Origin: a virus
Taxonomy: Duplodnaviria; Heunggongvirae; Uroviricota; Caudoviricetes
Length of the DNA stretch: 41,372 nt
IMG/VR virus record: IMGVR_UViG_2778261576_000004
Location: 1-41,372 of that record
Reading direction: 5' to 3' (one strand)
Under the pieces are notes generated by a model. That model had not been told where the DNA came from. It made no database searches and worked only from the letters and a program-made list of their open reading frames with translations. The position numbers were made by a program, and so were the translations under genes. Of this stretch, positions 5,800 through 41,372 are shown one piece after another (position 1 is the stretch's first letter; every line of letters begins with the position of its first letter).

Positions 5800-5862
5800 T
5801 TACCCAACAGGTAAATGCACCTCATGGGTAACTATCCTTGATTTTTGTTACCTTATGGGTGA
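5800..5862. promoter_or_regulatory. OR-like operator region: palindrome 5800-5814 (perfect) and 5848-5862 (one mismatch)
   Basis: TTACCCAACAGGTAA and TTACCTTATGGGTGA in the 154-bp divergent intergenic region between repressor and Cro-like genes. Confidence 0.55.
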
Positions 5863-31800: not shown

Positions 31801-32208
31801 GGCACGATTGCGCTTGGCTCAATGGTCTATATGATGAAACAGAAGTTAAGCGGTCGCGATATCGACTACAGCTGGAATAACCTTGTGAAAGAGGGGATCG
31901 ACCGGGGCGGAATGCTTGGCTGGCTCTCTGAGCCGCTGAATACCGTTGAGAACATAAGCGGCGGTAGGTTTGGTCTTGGCGCGATGTTTGGTGCGCCTCC
32001 GGTATCAAGGTTTCAGAGTCGTAATGCTATTGGTGCTTTACTTGGTCCTACCTTTGATCTTGGCGGTGATGCCGCGACGGTTGCGAATGGTGTACTTAAC
32101 GGAGAATTTGACAGCCAGCAAACCCACGCGGTCCGTAAAATGCTACCTTTTCAGAACCTGTGGGCGATATCACCGTTACTAAATAAAGTTGAAGAGCAGA
32201 TGAAATAG
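28819..32208 (+). CDS. Putative internal virion (ejection) protein D-like
   Basis: 1129-aa ORF in the gp16 position; long coiled-coil regions and hydrophobic Gly/Ala-rich stretches. Confidence 0.55.
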   Translation: MPIYEQDPKELLGEDIQQIAAPDDSNFYMETPSLLSAVNPFTSDQRVQRSRQAAFRIDNTLGSFIASAPFSQFDRVEGYNPFDNDAADIKGYEDFADSFINSGSPEETMAIKHRIDQQRADMEYNSGLGFAGTVSSVAMRLADPFNAISMFIPFGAVVRGGRIAETAGRFALANAAGSVASEAALQATQEARSPMESVSNVVVDALVGGILGAGAQLLAGPGAREAVVNSVGNHLRGMDSPQSIGAAQVFNTTLDQEQLAGLGLANKTLSVTPAGRLAQSPSLVSRQINQQLAENNYFFAKNDEGLATFTAVETKIKQYDAMLYKQMEATRDAYQQYSKSVSARGVKRMNFIDFNEAVGMAMRRGDQSDIPEVSQAAARIRPIFETTKARMQELGILPEDIDVVTAKSYLPRIYKFDKILSDRTEFRGRIANWIQGISAKGADKAGQRIERINSLLKTAEESAPRADALASEIAEAEKWSGKKILLMEELDKRNKLISQETDTQARLTRIEKELAETSSEKLQARMMKESSDLKTRLDDIAQAKSELPVYQRHMELLDNPRKYRSELRRLQKRANSTTRLNASRERALKQMEPLSREEAEDAADEIVNKIIGAPSGLVPADIIPERLVGRAGFTKSRTLLIPDERIEDFLESDVNYIMESYLRQVAPEIELTAQFGRKDMGEQIRQVSEEYTRLIKEAKTPKRRAVLEKQREADIRDITAMRDRLLGTYGAPQDPRSFFVRAGRVARNINFLRLLGGMTVSAATDLMRPMMQHGLRKSLGPMVSMLKNMDSVKIATRDLREMAVGLDYVLSTRTKAIADLTDPYSRRSAAERGLNWMTQKFGNWTLMNQWNSALKSWSGMIVQSRILDAARQVSAGGTLSKSEMRKMAQVGINEDVLRRIGEQFGKHGEDMDGLLTGHSHLWDDRFAREIFQSAVLKDVDSVIVTPGVGDTPLFFSKEGWKMITQFKTFIFAQHNRVLVSGIQQGDAAFYLGALGTIALGSMVYMMKQKLSGRDIDYSWNNLVKEGIDRGGMLGWLSEPLNTVENISGGRFGLGAMFGAPPVSRFQSRNAIGALLGPTFDLGGDAATVANGVLNGEFDSQQTHAVRKMLPFQNLWAISPLLNKVEEQMK

Positions 32209-32649
32209 CTATTCACAATTAGTGATGGCGTATGTATCAAATATATTGCCATCACTAAATACATACCTATACTCAATCACTCCGCCAAGGTGAATAAATG
32301 CTTTCATTTGCCTGTTGGAGCAAATGCTCGATTTTGAATAATTTCGCATTACACTCTTTAATTTATTTTCTAAGGTTACATCACCATTATAAACTTTTGA
32401 TAAATAGCTGTTGTTGTAATTAAGATGCGCTACAACTAAAAGTTTGTTTAGTATTGCATTTATTGAAACAATAGACATATTATCATTCAATTTTATGGGA
32501 AGTGACTTTCCTGCTTCTGATGCAATTTTGTTTGCATGTGCACACATATCCTCATTTATTAAATTCTTAAAACATATGTCGTTTGCAAACGAAAAAATTG
32601 GTAGGATAAACAAAACGGTAGCTGTAATAGCGTGCATCGGCTTAATCAT
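32209..32649 (-). CDS. Hypothetical secreted protein (AT-rich accessory gene)
   Basis: N-terminal signal-peptide-like segment (AITATVLFILPIFSFA); strongly AT-rich coding sequence; convergent with the upstream virion gene. Confidence 0.4.
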   Translation of the reverse strand: MIKPMHAITATVLFILPIFSFANDICFKNLINEDMCAHANKIASEAGKSLPIKLNDNMSIVSINAILNKLLVVAHLNYNNSYLSKVYNGDVTLENKLKSVMRNYSKSSICSNRQMKAFIHLGGVIEYRYVFSDGNIFDTYAITNCE

Positions 32650-32661
32650 TAGGTGACCTTT

Positions 32662-33111
32662 ATGTTCAAGAAGATGATCAACAGATTAATCGGTGGTAAG
32701 GAGGTTAGCAATAAAATTCAACCTCTTATCTTTAAGGATAACTTTTCAGCTTTTGAGTATGCGTGTAAGTATCTTGACACAAGCCTTTCAGCCAATAAAC
32801 CAATGCCAGCCATCATCATACCTGGTCCCAGTGGGGAACAGCCAGTTTTGCTGGATTCTGGAAGACAAAGGGCAATGCTGAAGGTGTGCTCAGCTGATGG
32901 TGGATTTTTTGTTATTGCCGATTCATCTTACAGCAAAGGACCAAAGCTGAGGATTGGTGATCTTGTTGCTTGGTTGCCTGTGAGTTATGCCGAAGAATTA
33001 ACGGATAAAATAGAAGATCCTCGCTCCGCTATGGTTGGCTTTATATTGGGAACCATTCATCCTGAACTAACATCTACTGGCTGGAAGGGTAAAGAAAGAT
33101 TTCGCAAGTAG
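32662..33111 (+). CDS. Hypothetical protein (AT-rich accessory gene)
   Basis: ATG 32662 with AGGTGA SD; divergent from the 32209-32649 gene with almost no spacer; followed by a terminator. Confidence 0.4.
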   Translation: MFKKMINRLIGGKEVSNKIQPLIFKDNFSAFEYACKYLDTSLSANKPMPAIIIPGPSGEQPVLLDSGRQRAMLKVCSADGGFFVIADSSYSKGPKLRIGDLVAWLPVSYAEELTDKIEDPRSAMVGFILGTIHPELTSTGWKGKERFRK

Positions 33112-33125
33112 CGTGACATGTCACA

Positions 33126-33149
33126 GGCCGCTTTCGCGGCCTTGTTTTT
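33126..33149 (+). terminator. Rho-independent terminator
   Basis: GGCCGC-TTTC-GCGGCC hairpin followed by TTGTTTTT; directly preceded by the GTGACATGTCAC palindrome. Confidence 0.6.
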
Positions 33150-33309
33150 AACGAATGCCACCGCCGCCCGGACGGGAATCCGCAGAACGCCCACCGCAGC
33201 GGGAGCCGTCAGCAGCAGTGTCGCTGTCGTGCTGACAACGACCGGCAAAGGCCTGAGTTGAAGCTACCAGAGACAACAAAACGAACAGTGCAGCAAATGC
33301 TTTTTTCAT
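33148..33309 (-). CDS. Hypothetical small secreted peptide
   Basis: Predicted signal peptide MKKAFAALFVLLSLVASTQAFA followed by a 31-aa Gly/Arg-rich tail with two Cys; weak SD. Confidence 0.25.
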   Translation of the reverse strand: MKKAFAALFVLLSLVASTQAFAGRCQHDSDTAADGSRCGGRSADSRPGGGGIR

Positions 33310-33401
33310 TGTGAAATTTCCATCTATAAGCCACCTCAATGTGGCGTCAATGAGTGTAGCACTGACTTTTGTTTCGCCCACAAAAAAGCCCGCAGCGCGG
33401 G

Positions 33402-33842
33402 CTATTCTTCTTCATCATTAAAAAGCGGATTGTTGTTTCCATCTGATGAAAGGAAAGGTATGTGTTCTCTTGAAAATCCAACAATGACAATTTCATTATC
33501 ATTTTTTGCATAATGAATGCATTCATTAGAATGCCTTCCGCCAGGGTTGAAATTTAAGTTAATGGTATAATTCTTAAATGTGTTTGGATACCATGTTGGC
33601 CCACAATGATAATGCCAATAATTCTCTTGCTCATAATTGTCTGAGCCGGGAATTTTATCATGGTTATCATCAACCCACGAGGGCTTGTTTTTTCCAACAA
33701 GCGCCCTTCCATTGGCAACATCCTCTAAAAAACTTTGTATGATTTTTATTTCATCATCAGTAAGGAAAGGTCCGTCTACAGCGAAAGGGGTGTTGCTTTC
33801 CCCATGTAGAAAACTATTAGATATTCTAATGTTAAACTTCAA
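33402..33842 (-). CDS. Hypothetical protein (AT-rich, probable TTG start)
   Basis: TTG at 33842 preceded by CAGGAG SD; AT-rich; downstream partner of the 33863-34030 gene. The ORF-track N-terminal extension to 33983 overlaps the better-supported small gene. Confidence 0.4.
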   Translation of the reverse strand: MKFNIRISNSFLHGESNTPFAVDGPFLTDDEIKIIQSFLEDVANGRALVGKNKPSWVDDNHDKIPGSDNYEQENYWHYHCGPTWYPNTFKNYTINLNFNPGGRHSNECIHYAKNDNEIVIVGFSREHIPFLSSDGNNNPLFNDEEE

Positions 33843-33862
33843 GGAAAACTCCTGATGTGCTT

Positions 33863-34030
33863 CTATTTGGAGCGAAATGCCGCCTTGAAGTCGCTGAAAG
33901 ATGTTCCTGTCTGGTAAACCATATCCTTGTCGCGCTCTTTGCTTGCGCGGCCAAGCATAACTTTTCCAATGACATCCCAGCATTGCTTGGCTTGTTCATT
34001 GTGCTGAGTACGATTTTTCAACGCTGTCAT
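33863..34030 (-). CDS. Hypothetical small protein (55 aa)
   Basis: ATG 34030 with a strong AAGGAGG SD 6 nt upstream and a palindrome copy directly 5' of it; translation MTALKNRTQHNEQAKQCWDVIGKVMLGRASKERDKDMVYQTGTSFSDFKAAFRSK. Confidence 0.4.
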   Translation of the reverse strand: MTALKNRTQHNEQAKQCWDVIGKVMLGRASKERDKDMVYQTGTSFSDFKAAFRSK

Positions 34031-34042
34031 ATCGCGCCTCCT

Positions 34043-34057
34043 TTACCTTTAAGGTAA
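34043..34057. promoter_or_regulatory. TTACC-N5-GGTAA palindrome at the 5' end of the small-gene cassette
   Basis: Perfect TTACCTTTAAGGTAA abutting the SD; upstream on the minus strand are a TTGCAG -35-like and TACTAT -10-like hexamer with 17-bp spacing. Confidence 0.4.
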
Positions 34058-34129
34058 TAGTACGCTATTCACCCACAGTCTGCAATCTGTACAGAATTAT
34101 TTAAAGGCACATCCCTGTGCCGCCGCCCG

Positions 34130-34786
34130 TCAGAAGAACCCAGCCTTGTCGTTGATGTACTCCGCGTGGGTCTGGATATCACGCAGGCATTTGCTCACAC
34201 CAACAATGTAGCAGAACATGGTGGTCAGCTCCGCCGCCGCACCCGATACGTCGTGCCCGTCTTCCTGTAACTGGTTCAGCAGATTCATCAGCAGTGAGTT
34301 CTCCGTCAGGCCGAGAACACCAGACGGCGAATGAATCAGGCTACGGTAGCCGGGCTTCAGTGGGGCGCTGTATTCTTTTTTGTCTTCCAGCTTGATCGCC
34401 TCCATAATGGCGGGCATGAAGCCTGACAAGACCTTCTCCACTTTTGTTTCTTGTTGTCTTAAACGTTTCTCGCATTCAATGAAGTAGCGTCGCACCTGGC
34501 GACCTTTTTCGTTACGCTCGACCATCGCCAGCTCTTTGGCTGTATCAAGGGTGAGGTGGTACTCTTTGCGGTTGTGGCCGCCTCTACCAGATGTTTGCTT
34601 TCCCAAATTGGAAAGCAAAATATAGTCTTGATTTTCAATGAATTCGTATTCTGATATGCGATTTGTAATCCATGCTGCAAACACCTTTTTAACACCTAAA
34701 AAAGCGTGCAGATCGCGGGCATTACAAAGTAGGGCTGTTTCGTTAGATATAGTGCCGTTGAATACGGGGATGAGTTGAGCGTTCAT
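34130..34786 (-). CDS. Phage antirepressor (AntA/AntB-type N-terminal domain)
   Basis: N-terminus [38 protein letters not shown] matches the AntA pattern as recalled; C-terminal domain shared with the 35104-35361 product; GGAGA SD. Confidence 0.7.
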
Positions 34787-35103
34787 GATGGCGTCTCCAC
34801 TTAGCGAATTACATCACCACCGCTGAGACCAATCAGATGGTGGTGAACTGAACGGAGTTGGTCTTACCGGCCTAAGTGGTACCGGCGTCCTTTCGGACCC
34901 CCATTCAGCCCACCATAATTCTGGCATGACTGTGCTATACGCATAAAAAAACCACGTCTGGCGTGGTATGCGCCACTTAGTAATCCGGGAGACCAATCCC
35001 GGCACTGGATTTTGCCAGTGCCCGATTACTATGGCACAAGAGGAGTGCGATGTAAATTTACCGCAAAGGTAAATATAAGCACTCCTTTTGGTAATTGCAA
35101 ACC
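34787..35103 (-). other. Structured non-coding leader/spacer with intrinsic terminator
   Basis: Several perfect hairpins (e.g. CCGGGA-GACCAA-TCCCGG, CACTGG-ATTTTG-CCAGTG), a minus-strand terminator (CCACG-CCAGA-CGTGG then T7) near 34943-34964, and a palindrome copy (35058-35072) nested in an 8-bp stem (AGGAGTGC/GCACTCCT). Confidence 0.4.
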
Positions 35104-35361
35104 TTATCTGGTTTGTTTACGTAATTGTTCGGCACAATAGTCGAGATGTGTTTGCAGATCCCGCATAGACATCTGTGAGCTGGTGACGTAGTTAATCAGT
35201 GCAGTCAGTTCGGCAAGTGGGCCATCGACATTAAATCCATCCTTATCGAGCTCCCGGAGTAATTTCATCAAGTGCGATCCCTCCACCAGTGATCTGACGC
35301 CTCCCGGCGTGTGAATCCTTTCGGTAAATCCGTCTTCCAGTGGATAGTGATACTGCTGCAT
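35104..35361 (-). CDS. Small protein homologous to the antirepressor C-terminal domain
   Basis: ...TPGGVRSLVEGSHLMKLLRELDKDGFNVDGPLAELTALINYV... aligns by eye with ...[42 protein letters not shown]... of the antirepressor; ATG 35361 with GGAGAA SD (ORF-track TTG at 35379). Confidence 0.45.
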   Translation of the reverse strand: MQQYHYPLEDGFTERIHTPGGVRSLVEGSHLMKLLRELDKDGFNVDGPLAELTALINYVTSSQMSMRDLQTHLDYCAEQLRKQTR

Positions 35362-35437
35362 CTTATCTTCTCCATGCAATAACTGTATATTTATACAGTA
35401 TCAAATAATTTGTTTGCTATCCAGCACGTTTTGAAAA

Positions 35438-35502
35438 TTACCTGAAAGGTAATATATATTCGTATTTACAGCCTTTCTATCCATATGTGGTTTTACAGGT
35501 AA
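35438..35502. promoter_or_regulatory. Palindrome (35438-35452) plus TATGTGGTT box (35484-35492) and GGTAATA in the divergent region upstream of the tailspike gene
   Basis: TTACCTGAAAGGTAA is identical to the copy upstream of the portal operon. Confidence 0.45.
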
Positions 35503-35556
35503 TAGAATAACCAGATATGCGGCGCAACGGGTGCTGCGACTATCTGGAGATTTAAC

Positions 35557-37686
35557 ATGACGGTCTCAACCGAAGTTGACCACAACGAATACACAGGTAA
35601 CGGCGTTACGACATCGTTTCCGTATACTTTTCGAATTTTCAGAAAATCAGACCTGGTTGTTCAGGTGTCTGACCTGAACGGGAACGTAACAGAATTGGTC
35701 CTGGATACCGGTTATACGGTAACTGGGGCGGGCACTTATAGTGGCGGTTCTGTGGTTCTTCCGTCTCCTCTTGCTGCTGGCTGGCGAATTACGATAGATC
35801 GTGTGCTTGATGTAGTGCAGGAGACAGACCTTCGCAATCAGGGAAAATTTTTCCCCGAAGTGCATGAAGATGCTTTTGACTACCTGACGATGCTGATCCA
35901 GCAATGTTTTGGGTGGTTCAGACGTGCATTGATGAAACCATCTTTGCTTGCAAAATATTACGATGCAAAGCAAAACAGAATTTCTAACCTTGCAGATCCA
36001 TCACTTGAGCTTGACGCTGTAAATAATCGCTCAATGCGTAATTATGTCGATGCTGCAATCGCCGGGGTTGTTGGTGGTTTTGGTTGGTTTATTCAGTATG
36101 GTTCTGGGGCAGTATACCGAACGTTCCAGGATAAGATGAGAGACACCATTAGTGTTCGTGATTTTGGTGCAAAAGGAGACGGCATAACAGATGATACTGT
36201 AGCAATTCAAAATGCTATTAATGCAGTACCAGAAGGGGCTATACTTGGATTTTATGGTGGTGAATTTGTTTTTGATAAGGTTGAATTGTTTAAGCCAATA
36301 ACATTAGTTGGTGATGCAACGTTAATTCACAACGGATTTAGAATAAAATCTAGCAGAATCCGATCGCTTTTATCTGGCGTTCAGAAATGCAAGGATTACT
36401 CCGAGTCTTCAAGAGCATTTTATTGCTATGCAAATGAAGACCAAAGAGATTATGACGATATTCAGATTTTATTTAATAGATTTGAAGGTTTCTTTTACTC
36501 TACGGCATTTGTTGCAAAAAACTATTATTTGGAGAATGACCCTAATTCAAGAACTGTCAAAAACACAAAAGTAATAGGGTGTACATCAGTTGCTCCTGAT
36601 TCTGTAAATGCCGGTCATTTTCAACATATAGGCGTTACAAATGCTGAAACATCACATAACTCAACTTATGGCGGACAAAATGCAACATCATACAACTTCA
36701 TTAACCAGAATGGATTTGTAAGGATTATAGGAAATTATGACCATAACAATAGCTATGGTTCATGTGAGCTTGAGAACTCAATGGTGAGCAACTCAGTTAT
36801 ATCAGGTAATACGTTTTCGTCATATTTATGGGTGGATGATACAAGTAATGTTACTATTTCTGGAAATACCGTTTCATCAAGGATCAAAGTAACATCGCAA
36901 ACTGACGATGTTCATAATATAACCATATCAGCAAATACCACAAAACGGATTACTATAGAGCAATTTGGAGAATCTCCGACAGGTCTGGTATATGGTGCAT
37001 TAATTTCCTGTAACACTATTACTGGCGACAGTGATGGAAGTTCAGACATTTTATGTACGTCACTTGTTACAGGTGAGATTTCATCAAATTATTGTCATGG
37101 ATCAGAAAAAAATATATCAATTGTCCGCCTGGATTCTTCTGATATAACTGTTAGAAACAATAAAGGAAACAAAGGATTACTTACAATAAGTAACGATGGT
37201 GGAAGGATAATTGAATATGGCAATGATTCTATGGTTCTGTCTGGAAGCATAGATAGCAGACATATACATAATTTATTACATCCAGACACATCGTATTTAG
37301 ATCTACCGGGGAAATATCTGCACGGAACTAAATATACTGGCAGTATCCCCCCCGGTTCCACAGGAACTGTATCACTTCAAATACCATCAGGGGCAAGCCT
37401 TGTTTTCAGGGGTGTTTCTATATGGGTTCTAATTAGAGATGTTAGCAATAACAATATATCGTCATTCAGAATTGATGGTTCATATAGAGTTGTTGGTGGA
37501 AGTGTTGGTCTTAGTTTTGCTGATGCTTATTCGAAACTCGGGGTGGATGCAAACTCTATAACAGTGTCAAACAATAACAGCACTTCTGACAATATCAGCA
37601 TAGCAATTAAAAACACAGATTCATCAAAAACCCTTCAGGTTACTGTTATGCCGGAGGTTTCAAGCAGGTTAGGTATTGAGGAATAG
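35557..37686 (+). CDS. Tailspike/tail fiber with T7 gp17-like N-terminal adaptor and pectate-lyase-like beta-helix domain
   Basis: N-terminal 130 aa resembles the gp17 tail-attachment domain as recalled; VRDFGAKGDGITDDTVAIQNAI is the signature start of right-handed beta-helix depolymerases; C-terminal two-thirds are AT-rich. Confidence 0.8.
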   Translation: MTVSTEVDHNEYTGNGVTTSFPYTFRIFRKSDLVVQVSDLNGNVTELVLDTGYTVTGAGTYSGGSVVLPSPLAAGWRITIDRVLDVVQETDLRNQGKFFPEVHEDAFDYLTMLIQQCFGWFRRALMKPSLLAKYYDAKQNRISNLADPSLELDAVNNRSMRNYVDAAIAGVVGGFGWFIQYGSGAVYRTFQDKMRDTISVRDFGAKGDGITDDTVAIQNAINAVPEGAILGFYGGEFVFDKVELFKPITLVGDATLIHNGFRIKSSRIRSLLSGVQKCKDYSESSRAFYCYANEDQRDYDDIQILFNRFEGFFYSTAFVAKNYYLENDPNSRTVKNTKVIGCTSVAPDSVNAGHFQHIGVTNAETSHNSTYGGQNATSYNFINQNGFVRIIGNYDHNNSYGSCELENSMVSNSVISGNTFSSYLWVDDTSNVTISGNTVSSRIKVTSQTDDVHNITISANTTKRITIEQFGESPTGLVYGALISCNTITGDSDGSSDILCTSLVTGEISSNYCHGSEKNISIVRLDSSDITVRNNKGNKGLLTISNDGGRIIEYGNDSMVLSGSIDSRHIHNLLHPDTSYLDLPGKYLHGTKYTGSIPPGSTGTVSLQIPSGASLVFRGVSIWVLIRDVSNNNISSFRIDGSYRVVGGSVGLSFADAYSKLGVDANSITVSNNNSTSDNISIAIKNTDSSKTLQVTVMPEVSSRLGIEE

Positions 37687-40301: not shown

Positions 40302-40841
40302 TTAATTAAACCAGCTGTCCGATTTGTTCTCTTCTGCTTTGCCCACGCTTTTCATCAGATCGCGACCGCCTTCAGTCATATTTCTGTTTGCGTCAGCTTC
40401 AGATTGCACCACATCGGTTTGCGCAGCTTTGTGCTTCAGTTCCTGATCGATAAATTCGTTTTCGCGCTTAACGCGGGCTTCTTCTTTCGCCAGTGCCAGT
40501 TTTTGTTTCTGAATCTCTAAGCTGCGTAGCTCATCTTCATAACTTTGATCGCGTTTTTTGTCCGCAGTGGCTTCGGCGTCCAGTTTATCCTGACGAGCTT
40601 TCTTATTTGCCGCTGCCGTTGCCGCTCTTTTATTAGCCGCGGCCTGGGCGTTTGCGCGACGTTGCTTCTCTTGCTGGATTTCCCTGTTGCGCTCCGCGAC
40701 CCATTCGTCATGCTGCCTTTGCTCTTCATTTTTACCTTGCTGTTCCGCTTCTGCGACAGCCGAGAGTTGATCCTGCAATGATGAGGCGATAGCCGGATAG
40801 CTAAAGGAGGCTAAGATGGCGCAAAGAAAAACTTTCTTCAT
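40302..40841 (-). CDS. Secreted periplasmic coiled-coil protein
   Basis: Signal-peptide-like N-terminus MKKVFLCAILASFSYPAIA; Lys/Glu/Ala/Gln-rich helical body; family not confidently recognised. Confidence 0.45.
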   Translation of the reverse strand: MKKVFLCAILASFSYPAIASSLQDQLSAVAEAEQQGKNEEQRQHDEWVAERNREIQQEKQRRANAQAAANKRAATAAANKKARQDKLDAEATADKKRDQSYEDELRSLEIQKQKLALAKEEARVKRENEFIDQELKHKAAQTDVVQSEADANRNMTEGGRDLMKSVGKAEENKSDSWFN

Positions 40842-40856
40842 GACTCCTCCTGATTA

Positions 40857-41372
40857 TTAGCTCTTTTCAGGACATTTGGTATTTGGCTGAATACGCGTTT
40901 CGTTATACGTCGTGGTAATAACAACGGCTAAACCTGTCGTAAACTGGCACTCTTTACCCACCTGGGTGGAGGTATACACTTTGGTGCCTTCCTTATACGT
41001 TAGAGAAACACCTTCCACTAAGGTTTTATCATTCACCATAGAACCCGCTGCCGCGCCAACAGCTCCGCCGCCAACTGCACCTGCCGTCGTTCCGGAATTG
41101 CTGCCAGACCCCACGTTGTGGCCGATTACACCGCCAGCGACTGCACCAATAAGCGCGCCGAAGGCTTGTGCGTTTCGTTTATTTTGGGAGTTGTCTACGG
41201 CAACTTTTGCGGGAAGAATGGAAATAATATTAACGGTTTTAGTTTCTTGTTTGGTATTCAGTTGATCGGTTTGATAAACATCGGCGGCATGATCATCAGC
41301 ATTTGACTGGCATCCTGCCAGAGTGAATGACGCTAACATTGCCACAGGCAGAAGACATTTTTTAAATTTCAT
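40857..41372 (-). CDS. Glycine-zipper lipoprotein (SlyB/17-kDa-antigen-like)
   Basis: Lipobox LAGC after a signal peptide; Gly/Ala-rich glycine-zipper segment (GALIGAVAGGVIGHNVGSG...AVGGGAVGAAAG); start codon is the last triplet of the window. Confidence 0.55.
   Translation of the reverse strand: MKFKKCLLPVAMLASFTLAGCQSNADDHAADVYQTDQLNTKQETKTVNIISILPAKVAVDNSQNKRNAQAFGALIGAVAGGVIGHNVGSGSNSGTTAGAVGGGAVGAAAGSMVNDKTLVEGVSLTYKEGTKVYTSTQVGKECQFTTGLAVVITTTYNETRIQPNTKCPEKS

Follow-up and report, generated by a model that had tools for sequence, protein, structure and literature searches.

The block of genes described here occupies positions 32209-35556 of the IMG/VR virus record IMGVR_UViG_2778261576_000004, all 41,372 nucleotides (nt) of which were analysed and are called the window, and it is most easily introduced through the known systems that it resembles. 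The immI region of phages P1 and P7, as reportedly described by Citron and Schuster in 1990, is made up of the C4 antisense RNA, icd and ant1/2. For Salmonella phage SPC32H, Kim and Ryu in 2013 and Kim et al. in 2016 (PDB 5D50/5D4Z) are said to have found that the antirepressor Ant binds the repressor Rep and induces the prophage. An antirepressor of the SPC32H type is expected to disassemble the Rep tetramer. To our knowledge, a second, larger antirepressor under RNA control is not part of the SPC32H description. In the isrK-orf45-anrP region of the Salmonella prophage Gifsy-1, the isrK RNA, which carries a1/b1, activates via translation of orf45 that is coupled to anrP (PMC4825925). The Gifsy-1 prophage also reportedly uses small antirepressors controlled by LexA (PMC3121763), and this scheme of SOS antirepression is known from SPC32H and the Gifsy prophages (reviewed in PMC7380047).

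The block in the present window is quite probably the antirepressor region, equivalent to immI, of a Uetakevirus prophage, together with attached passenger genes, and it can be divided into an SOS arm, an RNA arm and cargo. A sequence-only reading of the same DNA had described it as an accessory island of mostly minus-strand genes, lying between the ejection-protein genes and the tailspike in a P22-like setting. Its place, bounds and orientation hold up: the block (about 3.3 kb) is flanked by a 1129-amino-acid (aa) virion gene that ends at 32208 and by the tail-fibre ATG at 35557, and it contains six minus-strand genes, one plus-strand gene (B) and a 317-nt leader. The P22-like setting has to be given up, the virion operon being of the epsilon15/phiV10 type. 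Judged by megablast searches with the island and the left 20 kb, which returned the Uetakevirus phages phiv142-3, phiV10, TL-2011b and vB_EcoP_ZX5 together with about 900 E. coli records, the source prophage is an epsilon15/phiV10-type Uetakevirus of E. coli and is not P22-like. Annotated relatives share a gene order in which the large virion genes are followed by a short minus-strand block, the tail fibre and then the holins. About 900 of 5,426 complete E. coli genomes contain at least part of the block, and only one of the 5,426 reaches at least 80% coverage of the particular combination found here.

Each of the seven island proteins matches a PHROG family (E 2e-40 to 1e-92), and so none of the seven genes is a chance open reading frame (ORF). 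Two strongly AT-rich genes had been remarked on in the sequence-only reading, and these are A, whose guanine plus cytosine (GC) content of 31.7% is the minimum of the window (mean 48.2%), and D2, at 35.6%; B is only mildly AT-rich (42% GC). About 40% of the block, comprising Ant85, the leader and Ant218, is conserved regulatory machinery, within which the N-terminal domain of Ant218 is itself swapped among relatives. The features of this machinery, and the repressor gene that lies outside the island, are as follows.

35381-35400, no strand: LexA (SOS) box TACTGTATAAATATACAGTT, a consensus match that begins 39 nt upstream of the Ant85 start codon
35104-35361, minus strand: Ant85, small SPC32H-type antirepressor, 85 aa (5D50_E; phrog_450)
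35028-35100, minus strand: promoter-like sites in tandem, one (TTGCAA-17-TATATT) at 35100-35072 and the other (TTTACA-17-CATAGT, with TG) at 35056-35028
34945-35034, minus strand: isrK-like small RNA or c4-a1b1 element (Rfam RF01394, RF03163), containing b1, a1 and a terminator
34836-34920, minus strand: C4 antisense RNA of the P1/P7 immI type (Rfam RF01695)
34797-34832, minus strand: C4 target sites b2 and a2, identified by complementarity to the C4 loops
34130-34786, minus strand: Ant218, large antirepressor, 218 aa, with an N-terminal AntA domain (PF08346, E 4e-26) and a C-terminal domain of about 75 aa
5160-5744, minus strand, outside the island: Rep, SPC32H-type repressor (5D50_A, E 4e-42, residues 1-190, with gaps)

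The RNA arm is contained in the leader. The best score there belongs to the Rfam isrK model (RF01394), which matches 35021-34945 with 67.7 bits (gathering score 50, E 1.9e-13), and the match is ended by an intrinsic terminator at 34967-34951 with its U-run; these results bear out the structured leader with a terminator that had been noticed from the sequence. Downstream lies the C4 RNA, which scores 61.2 bits against the RF01695 gathering score of 45 (E 1.6e-10). Its minimum free energy fold (-41.2 kcal/mol) consists of a long stem with both loops unpaired, namely a' (CCACUUAG, nt 42-49) and b' (AGACCAA, nt 57-63). The exact 8-nt complement of a', the a target CUAAGUGG, is present at 34980-34973 (a1) and again at 34804-34797 (a2), and the exact 7-nt complement of b', the b target UUGGUCU, is present at 34996-34990 (b1) and at 34832-34826 (b2). 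The b and a targets follow one another in the same order in both places, of which the first is upstream of C4 and the second is the ribosome-binding site of ant218; at the second, a2 overlaps the Shine-Dalgarno sequence GUGGAG ahead of the ATG at 34786. The sequence-only reading had pointed to mnt, arc and ant as the genes that P22 carries in this position; no island protein matches Mnt, Arc or a P22-type Ant in Pfam, and the regulator found is a P1-type C4 RNA with an isrK-like partner.

The same arrangement was followed through 14 related loci. Both C4 and isrK score above their Rfam thresholds in 12 of the 14. Loops and targets co-vary, with four a-types and three b-types that make up seven a/b combinations in the 14 loci, and in every C4-bearing locus both loops match the downstream targets b2 and a2. 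The preservation of exact complementarity through seven combinations argues for ongoing selection on the pairing of C4 with its targets. The upstream a1 lacks an exact match in three loci (L008, L009 and L012). In every locus a2 lies over the ribosome-binding site or over the start codon, the latter in one a-type. With no ORF overlapping the ant218 start in the present locus, we infer that C4 may occlude the ribosome-binding site of ant218 directly.

Two further observations concern the leader. The leader has a single ORF, of 37 codons (MPELWWAEWG...; 34927-34814, minus strand), which runs over C4 in the position of orf45 in Gifsy-1 and icd in P1. It stops 27 nt short of the ant218 ATG, so that it neither overlaps ant218 nor is coupled to it, and it is likely to be non-coding. 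In addition, the conserved sequence GGUGGUGA is found at 34821-34814, just downstream of C4, and at the same position in all relatives. This sequence complements the 3' strand of the basal stem of C4, and an alternative helix between the two could compete with the folding or processing of C4.

The SOS arm consists of Ant85 and its LexA box. Residues 2-84 of Ant85 align with residues 3-85 of PDB 5D50 chain E over 83 residues with few substitutions (E 5.5e-47), and the gene adjoins the tail-fibre gene in all relatives examined. The box upstream of it is the single LexA-box match across the 41-kb window, and none was found in 100 shuffles. It is conserved or near-consensus in nine relatives, being kept in E. 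coli and Pectobacterium and near-consensus in Cedecea and Klebsiella. Judged by this homology and this box, Ant85 is the conserved main antirepressor, of the SPC32H type and presumably controlled by LexA, and not an accessory gene, so the earlier placement of this antirepressor-domain paralog among the accessory cargo needs to be corrected. Matches of Ant85 to DUF724 and UpsF fell below the cut-offs and were ignored.

Ant218 joins an AntA domain, recognized as such in the sequence-only reading and secured by the Pfam match, to a C-terminal domain that recalls Ant85. Residues 137-213 match 5D50_E (E 4.6e-14), and the C-terminus is 43% identical to Ant85, which substantiates the similarity between the two antirepressors that had been noticed. 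Over its first 107 codons, ant218 shares about 91% DNA identity with ant genes of Shiga toxin (Stx) phages. Among relatives, the N-terminus of the large antirepressor may be AntA, Bro-N, ORF6N or P22_AR_N, and the C-terminal domain of about 75 aa in the large antirepressors of this slot is 31-47% identical to the small antirepressors. There are exceptions: a Pectobacterium Bro-N protein lacks this domain, and phiV10 retains about 30 residues of it. These comparisons suggest that the C-terminal domain binds Rep and that the N-terminal domain is exchangeable, and Rep is presumed to be the target of both antirepressors. In the related phage vB_EcoP_ZX5, overexpression of a Bro-N antirepressor promoted lytic growth (PMC9782041).

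A palindrome, TTACC-N5-GGTAA, recurs at the control sites of the block and elsewhere in the window.

35058-35072, no strand: TTACC-N5-GGTAA palindrome between the leader promoter-like sites, from a motif scan
34043-34057, no strand: TTACC-N5-GGTAA palindrome directly upstream of the D1 ribosome-binding site, from a motif scan
35431-35460, plus strand: promoter-like site (TTGAAA-18-TATATT) directed toward the tail-fibre gene; its spacer contains a TTACC-N5-GGTAA palindrome at 35438-35452
Palindrome starts in the window: 5026, 5088, 5800, 5848, 6185, 8131, 8193, 13926, 13944, 17086, 34043, 35058, 35438 and 38409

The 14 copies compare with 0.66 expected. They are often paired, 48-62 bp apart, at promoter-like sites; those at 5800 and 5848 lie in the intergenic region between rep and a divergent gene, and a copy is found at the equivalent leader position in phiV10 and in Pectobacterium. 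The palindrome is the probable operator bound by the SPC32H-type Rep, in which case the 14 copies would define the whole repressed regulon. In the leader, the promoter-like site at 35056-35028 would initiate near the 5' end of isrK.

The homologies, RNA family matches, complementarity, covariation, folds and synteny observed at this locus fit a mechanism with two routes to prophage induction. In the first, LexA would occupy 35381-35400 until DNA damage allows Ant85 to be made, and Ant85 would bind Rep and bring about prophage induction. In the second, the promoters at 35028-35100 would give rise to a short isrK-like RNA that stops at the terminator and to a read-through RNA that contains C4 and ant218. 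The C4 loops would pair with b2 and a2, and with C4 in excess ant218 would remain untranslated, following the logic of P1 immI, because a2 overlaps the ant218 ribosome-binding site. The isrK-like RNA, which bears b1 and a1, would titrate C4 and so activate, following the logic of Gifsy-1 IsrK. Ant218 would then deliver the Rep-binding domain of Ant85 in a form fused to the exchangeable AntA domain.

The remainder of the block is cargo, and its content varies. The sequence-only reading had called the region a hotspot, and comparison of the 14 loci agrees with this, as nearly every slot has alternative occupants. The slot after the virion gene holds A plus B, a 283-aa gene or a 46-aa gene; the slot downstream of the large antirepressor holds D1-D2, one of two YafO types, DUF4760 or a pair of 125- and 72-aa genes; and the slot between the leader and Ant85 is empty or holds a 242-aa gene or a pair consisting of a 175-aa gene and YafO. 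In Klebsiella (L015/L016, 2473-3989), the C4 module itself is replaced by a P22_AR_N antirepressor with Arc and a Mnt-like protein; C4 was not found there, and the antirepressor ends in a domain like the small Ant. Among relatives, the alternative cargo begins 1-2 nt past the same virion-gene stop, which argues that the recombination junction is exact. In the present window, the TAG stop of the 1129-aa gene abuts the CTA of the A stop on the opposite strand (32206-32211). The comparison supports the view that the block is a recombination hotspot with variable content which in function would be an immI-like antirepressor region.

Searches of the island proteins against Pfam, NCBIfam and PADLOC returned nothing but AntA. 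Immunity or defence cargo had been expected in this position; with PADLOC-DB v2, none of the seven island proteins matches a defence-system model. Ten alternative cargo proteins from the relatives gave YafO, DUF4760 and DUF2335 plus weak noise in Pfam and PADLOC; their PADLOC matches were weak and partial only, the best (E 3e-4, 18 bits) not being credible. The claim that none of the small proteins could be recognized still applies to B and C; it fails for D2, which has the fold of a RelE toxin, and for A, which has an AspS/PA3611 fold.

The D1-D2 cassette lies downstream of ant218.

33863-34030, minus strand: D1, 55 aa, predicted antitoxin (phrog_8607), always just upstream of D2
33402-33842, minus strand: D2, 146 aa, predicted toxin, with a TTG start behind AGGAG
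33387-33403, minus strand: intrinsic terminator that ends the ant218-D1-D2 transcription unit, with a 7-bp stem (6 GC pairs) and a T-run

The listed ORF of D2 would begin at an ATG and encode 193 aa. This reading was rejected, since all homologs and the PHROG profile begin at the TTG, the profile starting at residue 49 of that ORF. A Trp_leader match in Rfam at 33380-33486 (21.5 bits against 41, E 0.59), which overlaps the D2 stop codon and the terminator, was attributed to chance. The D2 family comprises 34 clusters from Enterobacterales and Pasteurellaceae, has no Pfam domain, and is marked by the conserved or invariant motifs GKNKPSW and YWHYHCG and by H127. An AlphaFold2 model of D2 (predicted local distance difference test, pLDDT, 92.5) has the toxin fold of the RelE/ParE superfamily. 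No match to the curated toxin families ParE_toxin, YoeB, YafQ, HigB and YafO was obtained in Pfam, NCBIfam or PADLOC, and neither a direct PDB sequence search nor an alignment-based PDB profile search gave anything significant. Identity with YafO was considered and rejected, as BLASTP and hhalign against YafO toxins of the same slot revealed no similarity (hhalign probability 0.14%).

The partner gene accompanies D2 in other settings. D1 has a counterpart of 47% identity in a Uetakevirus-like prophage of Pectobacterium, and D1-like small ORFs precede the D2 homologs in Pectobacterium, Klebsiella, Erwinia and Proteus. The cassette is found in lambdoid nin regions in Klebsiella (L005-L007, 4721-5486), in Erwinia persicina (L019/L020, 2793-3441) as a free-standing islet of the chromosome that is flanked by accA and housekeeping genes, and next to a DnaD_N/HTH_36 replication gene on contigs of 3-5 kb in Proteus (L022/L023). 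Judged by this distribution, D1-D2 is a mobile two-gene cassette that moves as a unit. The structure model leads to the prediction that it is a new toxin-antitoxin family of the RelE fold, outside the named ones; D2 would be a RelE-fold enzyme, probably a translation-dependent nuclease of messenger RNA, and D1 a small neutralizer of its toxicity.

The other three cargo genes lie at the virion end of the block.

32209-32649, minus strand: A, 146-aa periplasmic protein with a signal peptide and four conserved Cys
32662-33111, plus strand: B, 149-aa cytoplasmic protein, the sole plus-strand island gene (phrog_9944, E 1e-92)
33125-33142, no strand: hairpin rich in GC, in the gap separating the convergent genes B and C; read on the plus strand, it is a terminator with a T-run
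33148-33309, minus strand: C, 53-aa pre-peptide with a signal peptide and two Cys (phrog_14503, E 2e-40)

The signal peptide of A ends in ...PIFSFA|NDIC and has no lipobox. The predicted fold is that of AspS/PA3611, which resembles a type II secretion system (T2SS) pilotin, at about 15% sequence identity, and A would be a soluble periplasmic binding protein of the AspS/PA3611 kind. PA3611 (QSregVF) is itself non-lipidated, and its role is not known (PMC3542185). A has few close relatives; an exhaustive search collected 217 representative clusters, mostly stand-alone secreted proteins of about 145 aa with conserved cysteines. A does not match Pfam T2SSS_2 (PF16549) or QSregVF (PF13652), each of which is matched weakly by one of 56 relatives (E about 1e-3), and it has no significant match in the BFVD library of viral structures. 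The direct PDB sequence search gave a 13-bit match to Argonaute (E 0.73), which was dismissed, and nothing else significant. A role related to secretins or to exclusion would, from the modelled fold, be speculation.

B belongs to a narrow enterobacterial family of 13 clusters, the full-length members of which are at least 56% identical with 48 invariant columns; sequence and profile searches gave no match in Pfam, NCBIfam, PADLOC or PDB. A and B each occur without the other, as in L017/L018, where B is found without A. The divergent start codons of A and B are 13 nt apart (32649-32662), a gap which implies that each promoter lies inside the coding sequence of the other gene, or else that B starts at the GTG at 32653. 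After predicted cleavage, C would yield a Gly/Asp-rich peptide of about 31 aa with two Cys. Most of the E. coli and Klebsiella relatives have C: eight E. coli phage records contain it unchanged (100% identity), Klebsiella phages contain it at 82-86% identity, and six of seven annotated E. coli loci include it (as WP_000708858.1). Its match to HxsA3 was below the cut-off and was ignored.

Some neighbouring features of the window may be recorded here. To the left of A lie the genes for the 915-aa (SLT-domain) and 1129-aa virion proteins. The tail-fibre gene (35557-37686; GC 39%) encodes a pectate-lyase-like domain. The tail fibres of relatives share the N-terminus, after which an endosialidase, GH28, SGNH hydrolase or beta-helix domain takes the place of the rest, a customary modularity in receptor binding. 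Past the lysis cassette, on the minus strand of 40302-41372, the products of two genes are a secreted protein of 179 aa rich in Lys, Glu and Gln and a lipoprotein of 171 aa that contains a glycine-zipper segment; the pair belongs either to the prophage, as more cargo, or to the flanking host DNA.

Several other explanations of the block or its parts deserve to be weighed. The whole island might be mainly a locus for superinfection exclusion or anti-phage defence, analogous to sieA plus immI of P22, with A, B, C and/or D1-D2 protecting the lysogen. The slots are indeed highly variable among relatives, the base composition of A and D2 is foreign, two products are exported to the envelope, which is the site of DNA entry, and A directly follows the genes of the 915-aa (SLT-domain) and 1129-aa virion proteins. 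Moreover, toxin-antitoxin-type cassettes (D1-D2, YafO) occupy one slot, and toxin-antitoxin modules can act as abortive-infection systems. However, PADLOC offers nothing for the seven island proteins and only weak partial matches (best E 3e-4) for the ten alternatives, no multi-pass membrane protein like SieA was seen among the island ORFs when judged by eye (no search with a SieA profile was made), and conserved machinery for induction makes up about 40% of the block. In addition, the prophage vB_EcoP_ZX5 of the same genus, which has a different island content, left every host trait that was assayed unchanged, the list being growth, biofilm, stress response, antibiotic sensitivity, adherence and virulence but not phage resistance (PMC9782041). 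A primarily defensive island is thus a possibility, though a doubtful one. A similar question arises for D1-D2, which could be a lytic-cycle effector, for example a host shut-off RNase, expressed only after the removal of Rep, and not an autonomous toxin-antitoxin pair. The palindrome just upstream of D1 is the motif of the early promoters next to rep, and D1-D2 is co-oriented with ant218, with no terminator found between them. Such an effector nevertheless seems unlikely: D1-D2 also occurs outside phages, in the Erwinia accA islet and on the 3-5 kb Proteus contigs, YafO toxin cassettes replace it in relatives, and a non-selective nuclease of messenger RNA would cut phage transcripts too.

The leader, for its part, might be an activator only, in the pure mode of Gifsy-1 IsrK, or a decaying relic, so that C4 does not repress ant218. 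The top Rfam score in the leader is that of isrK (67.7 bits), the isrK RNA of Gifsy-1 switches on translation of the antirepressor encoded downstream of it (PMC4825925), and a coupled ORF of the icd/orf45 type is absent from the present locus. We consider this quite improbable, however, given a C4 model well above threshold here and in relatives, loop/target pairing that remains exact across seven sequence combinations, and the placement of a2 on the ribosome-binding site or start codon in every locus. The least likely of the proposals makes A a secretin pilotin or anti-pilotin that binds the S-domain of GspD-beta or of filamentous-phage pIV, and so alters type II secretion or blocks another element. 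The pilotin-like predicted fold is what speaks for it; against it, a protein with no lipobox cannot use the Lol route that defines pilotins, A is equally close to PA3611, its identity is only 15% with no linkage to secretion genes, and its family consists mostly of stand-alone secreted proteins of about 145 aa. Some observations do weigh against the preferred reading, in which an antirepressor region with C4 control carries attached passenger genes. The Rfam c4-a1b1 model (RF03163), at 35034-34982, reaches 39.9 bits and stays under its gathering score of 46.7. Unlike P1 and Gifsy-1, the leader has no small ORF of the icd/orf45 type overlapping the ant218 start, so that C4 may act in a different mode here (by occlusion or by coupling). 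The D1 gene has the palindrome just upstream, a sign of repression in the lysogen that would be unusual for an addiction or defence module. Finally, A is without the lipid anchor that defines pilotins and without a link to a secretin.

A more ambitious version of the preferred reading, which we put forward tentatively and think less likely to be right than wrong, is that the block is a two-input, RNA-coded antirepressor switch. One Rep-binding domain would be supplied both by the SOS-controlled 85-aa protein and by the large antirepressor, the latter locked by a two-part combinatorial C4 'address' of which there are at least seven a/b combinations. A superinfecting or co-resident Uetakevirus with another address would escape the lock, make the large Ant and induce the resident prophage. 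In the same version, D1-D2 would be an unrecognized toxin-antitoxin family of the RelE fold that rivals the YafO cassettes for the slot and serves as an abortive-infection or stabilization module. If true, this would provide a mechanism of anti-immunity and cross-induction between otherwise homoimmune phages. On the preferred reading itself, a few loop/target sequences can be read straight from the genome as an immunity 'address', and a single locus combines P1-type C4/isrK control with SOS antirepression of the SPC32H type, both acting through the same predicted repressor-binding domain. Current understanding is not overturned; the regulation is built from two known systems, and the main gain is one of annotation. 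What has been annotated is the control region of a common E. coli prophage family, whose phiV10-like members serve in O157 typing and as reporter phages; to this are added one well-supported new candidate family of toxin-antitoxin modules (D1-D2) and, for A, a first structural clue to a widespread family of secreted proteins of about 145 aa.

The locus may finally be set against the known systems. D1-D2 resembles RelE, YoeB, YafQ, HigB and the YafO cassettes in its small upstream partner gene and in its mobility among phages, chromosomes and small contigs, and D2 shares conserved His and Lys residues with the RNase members of the RelE/ParE superfamily. Profile comparisons, however, relate the sequence of D2 to none of these toxins; D2 is also longer, at about 146 aa against 85-95 aa, and the motifs GKNKPSW and YWHYHCG are confined to its own family. 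In contrast to AspS (YghG), A is not a lipoprotein and so is closer to PA3611, and it is prophage-encoded beside virion genes. As in the P22 immI region (mnt, arc, ant and sar) with sieA, an antirepressor module lies between the injection-protein and tail-spike genes of a short-tailed temperate phage; the difference is that Pfam reveals no Arc/Mnt ribbon-helix-helix proteins and no P22-type Ant, and that the regulator is an RNA of a different family.

The likeness to SPC32H is closer, extending to the epsilon15-like podovirus setting, the homolog of the crystallized Ant, the Rep homolog, the LexA box upstream of ant and the position of the gene next to the tail-spike or tail-fibre gene. Rep is clearly more diverged here than Ant (E 4e-42, with gaps), and a second, larger antirepressor holds the same domain under RNA control. 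Gifsy-1 shares an RNA of the isrK family with its own terminator upstream of an antirepressor gene and partial read-through, whereas the present locus has no overlapping ORF and has a full C4 match between isrK and ant; we infer that orf45/STnc1160 of Gifsy-1 equates to C4. The present locus departs from immI of P1 and P7 in belonging to a podovirus prophage, in having no icd-like coupled ORF, with the target on the ant ribosome-binding site itself, in an antirepressor that is a fusion of AntA and SPC32H-type Ant unrelated to P1 Ant1/2, and in an a1/b1 element that ends in a terminator, as isrK does. It nonetheless follows immI in the order of its parts (promoter or promoters, a1/b1, C4 with its a'/b' loops, a2/b2 and the antirepressor), in a target that falls on a ribosome-binding site, and in a specificity set by the loops like that of P1/P7 heteroimmunity, here with seven a/b combinations. 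The repressor-type palindrome at the promoter would likewise correspond to Op51 of P1.

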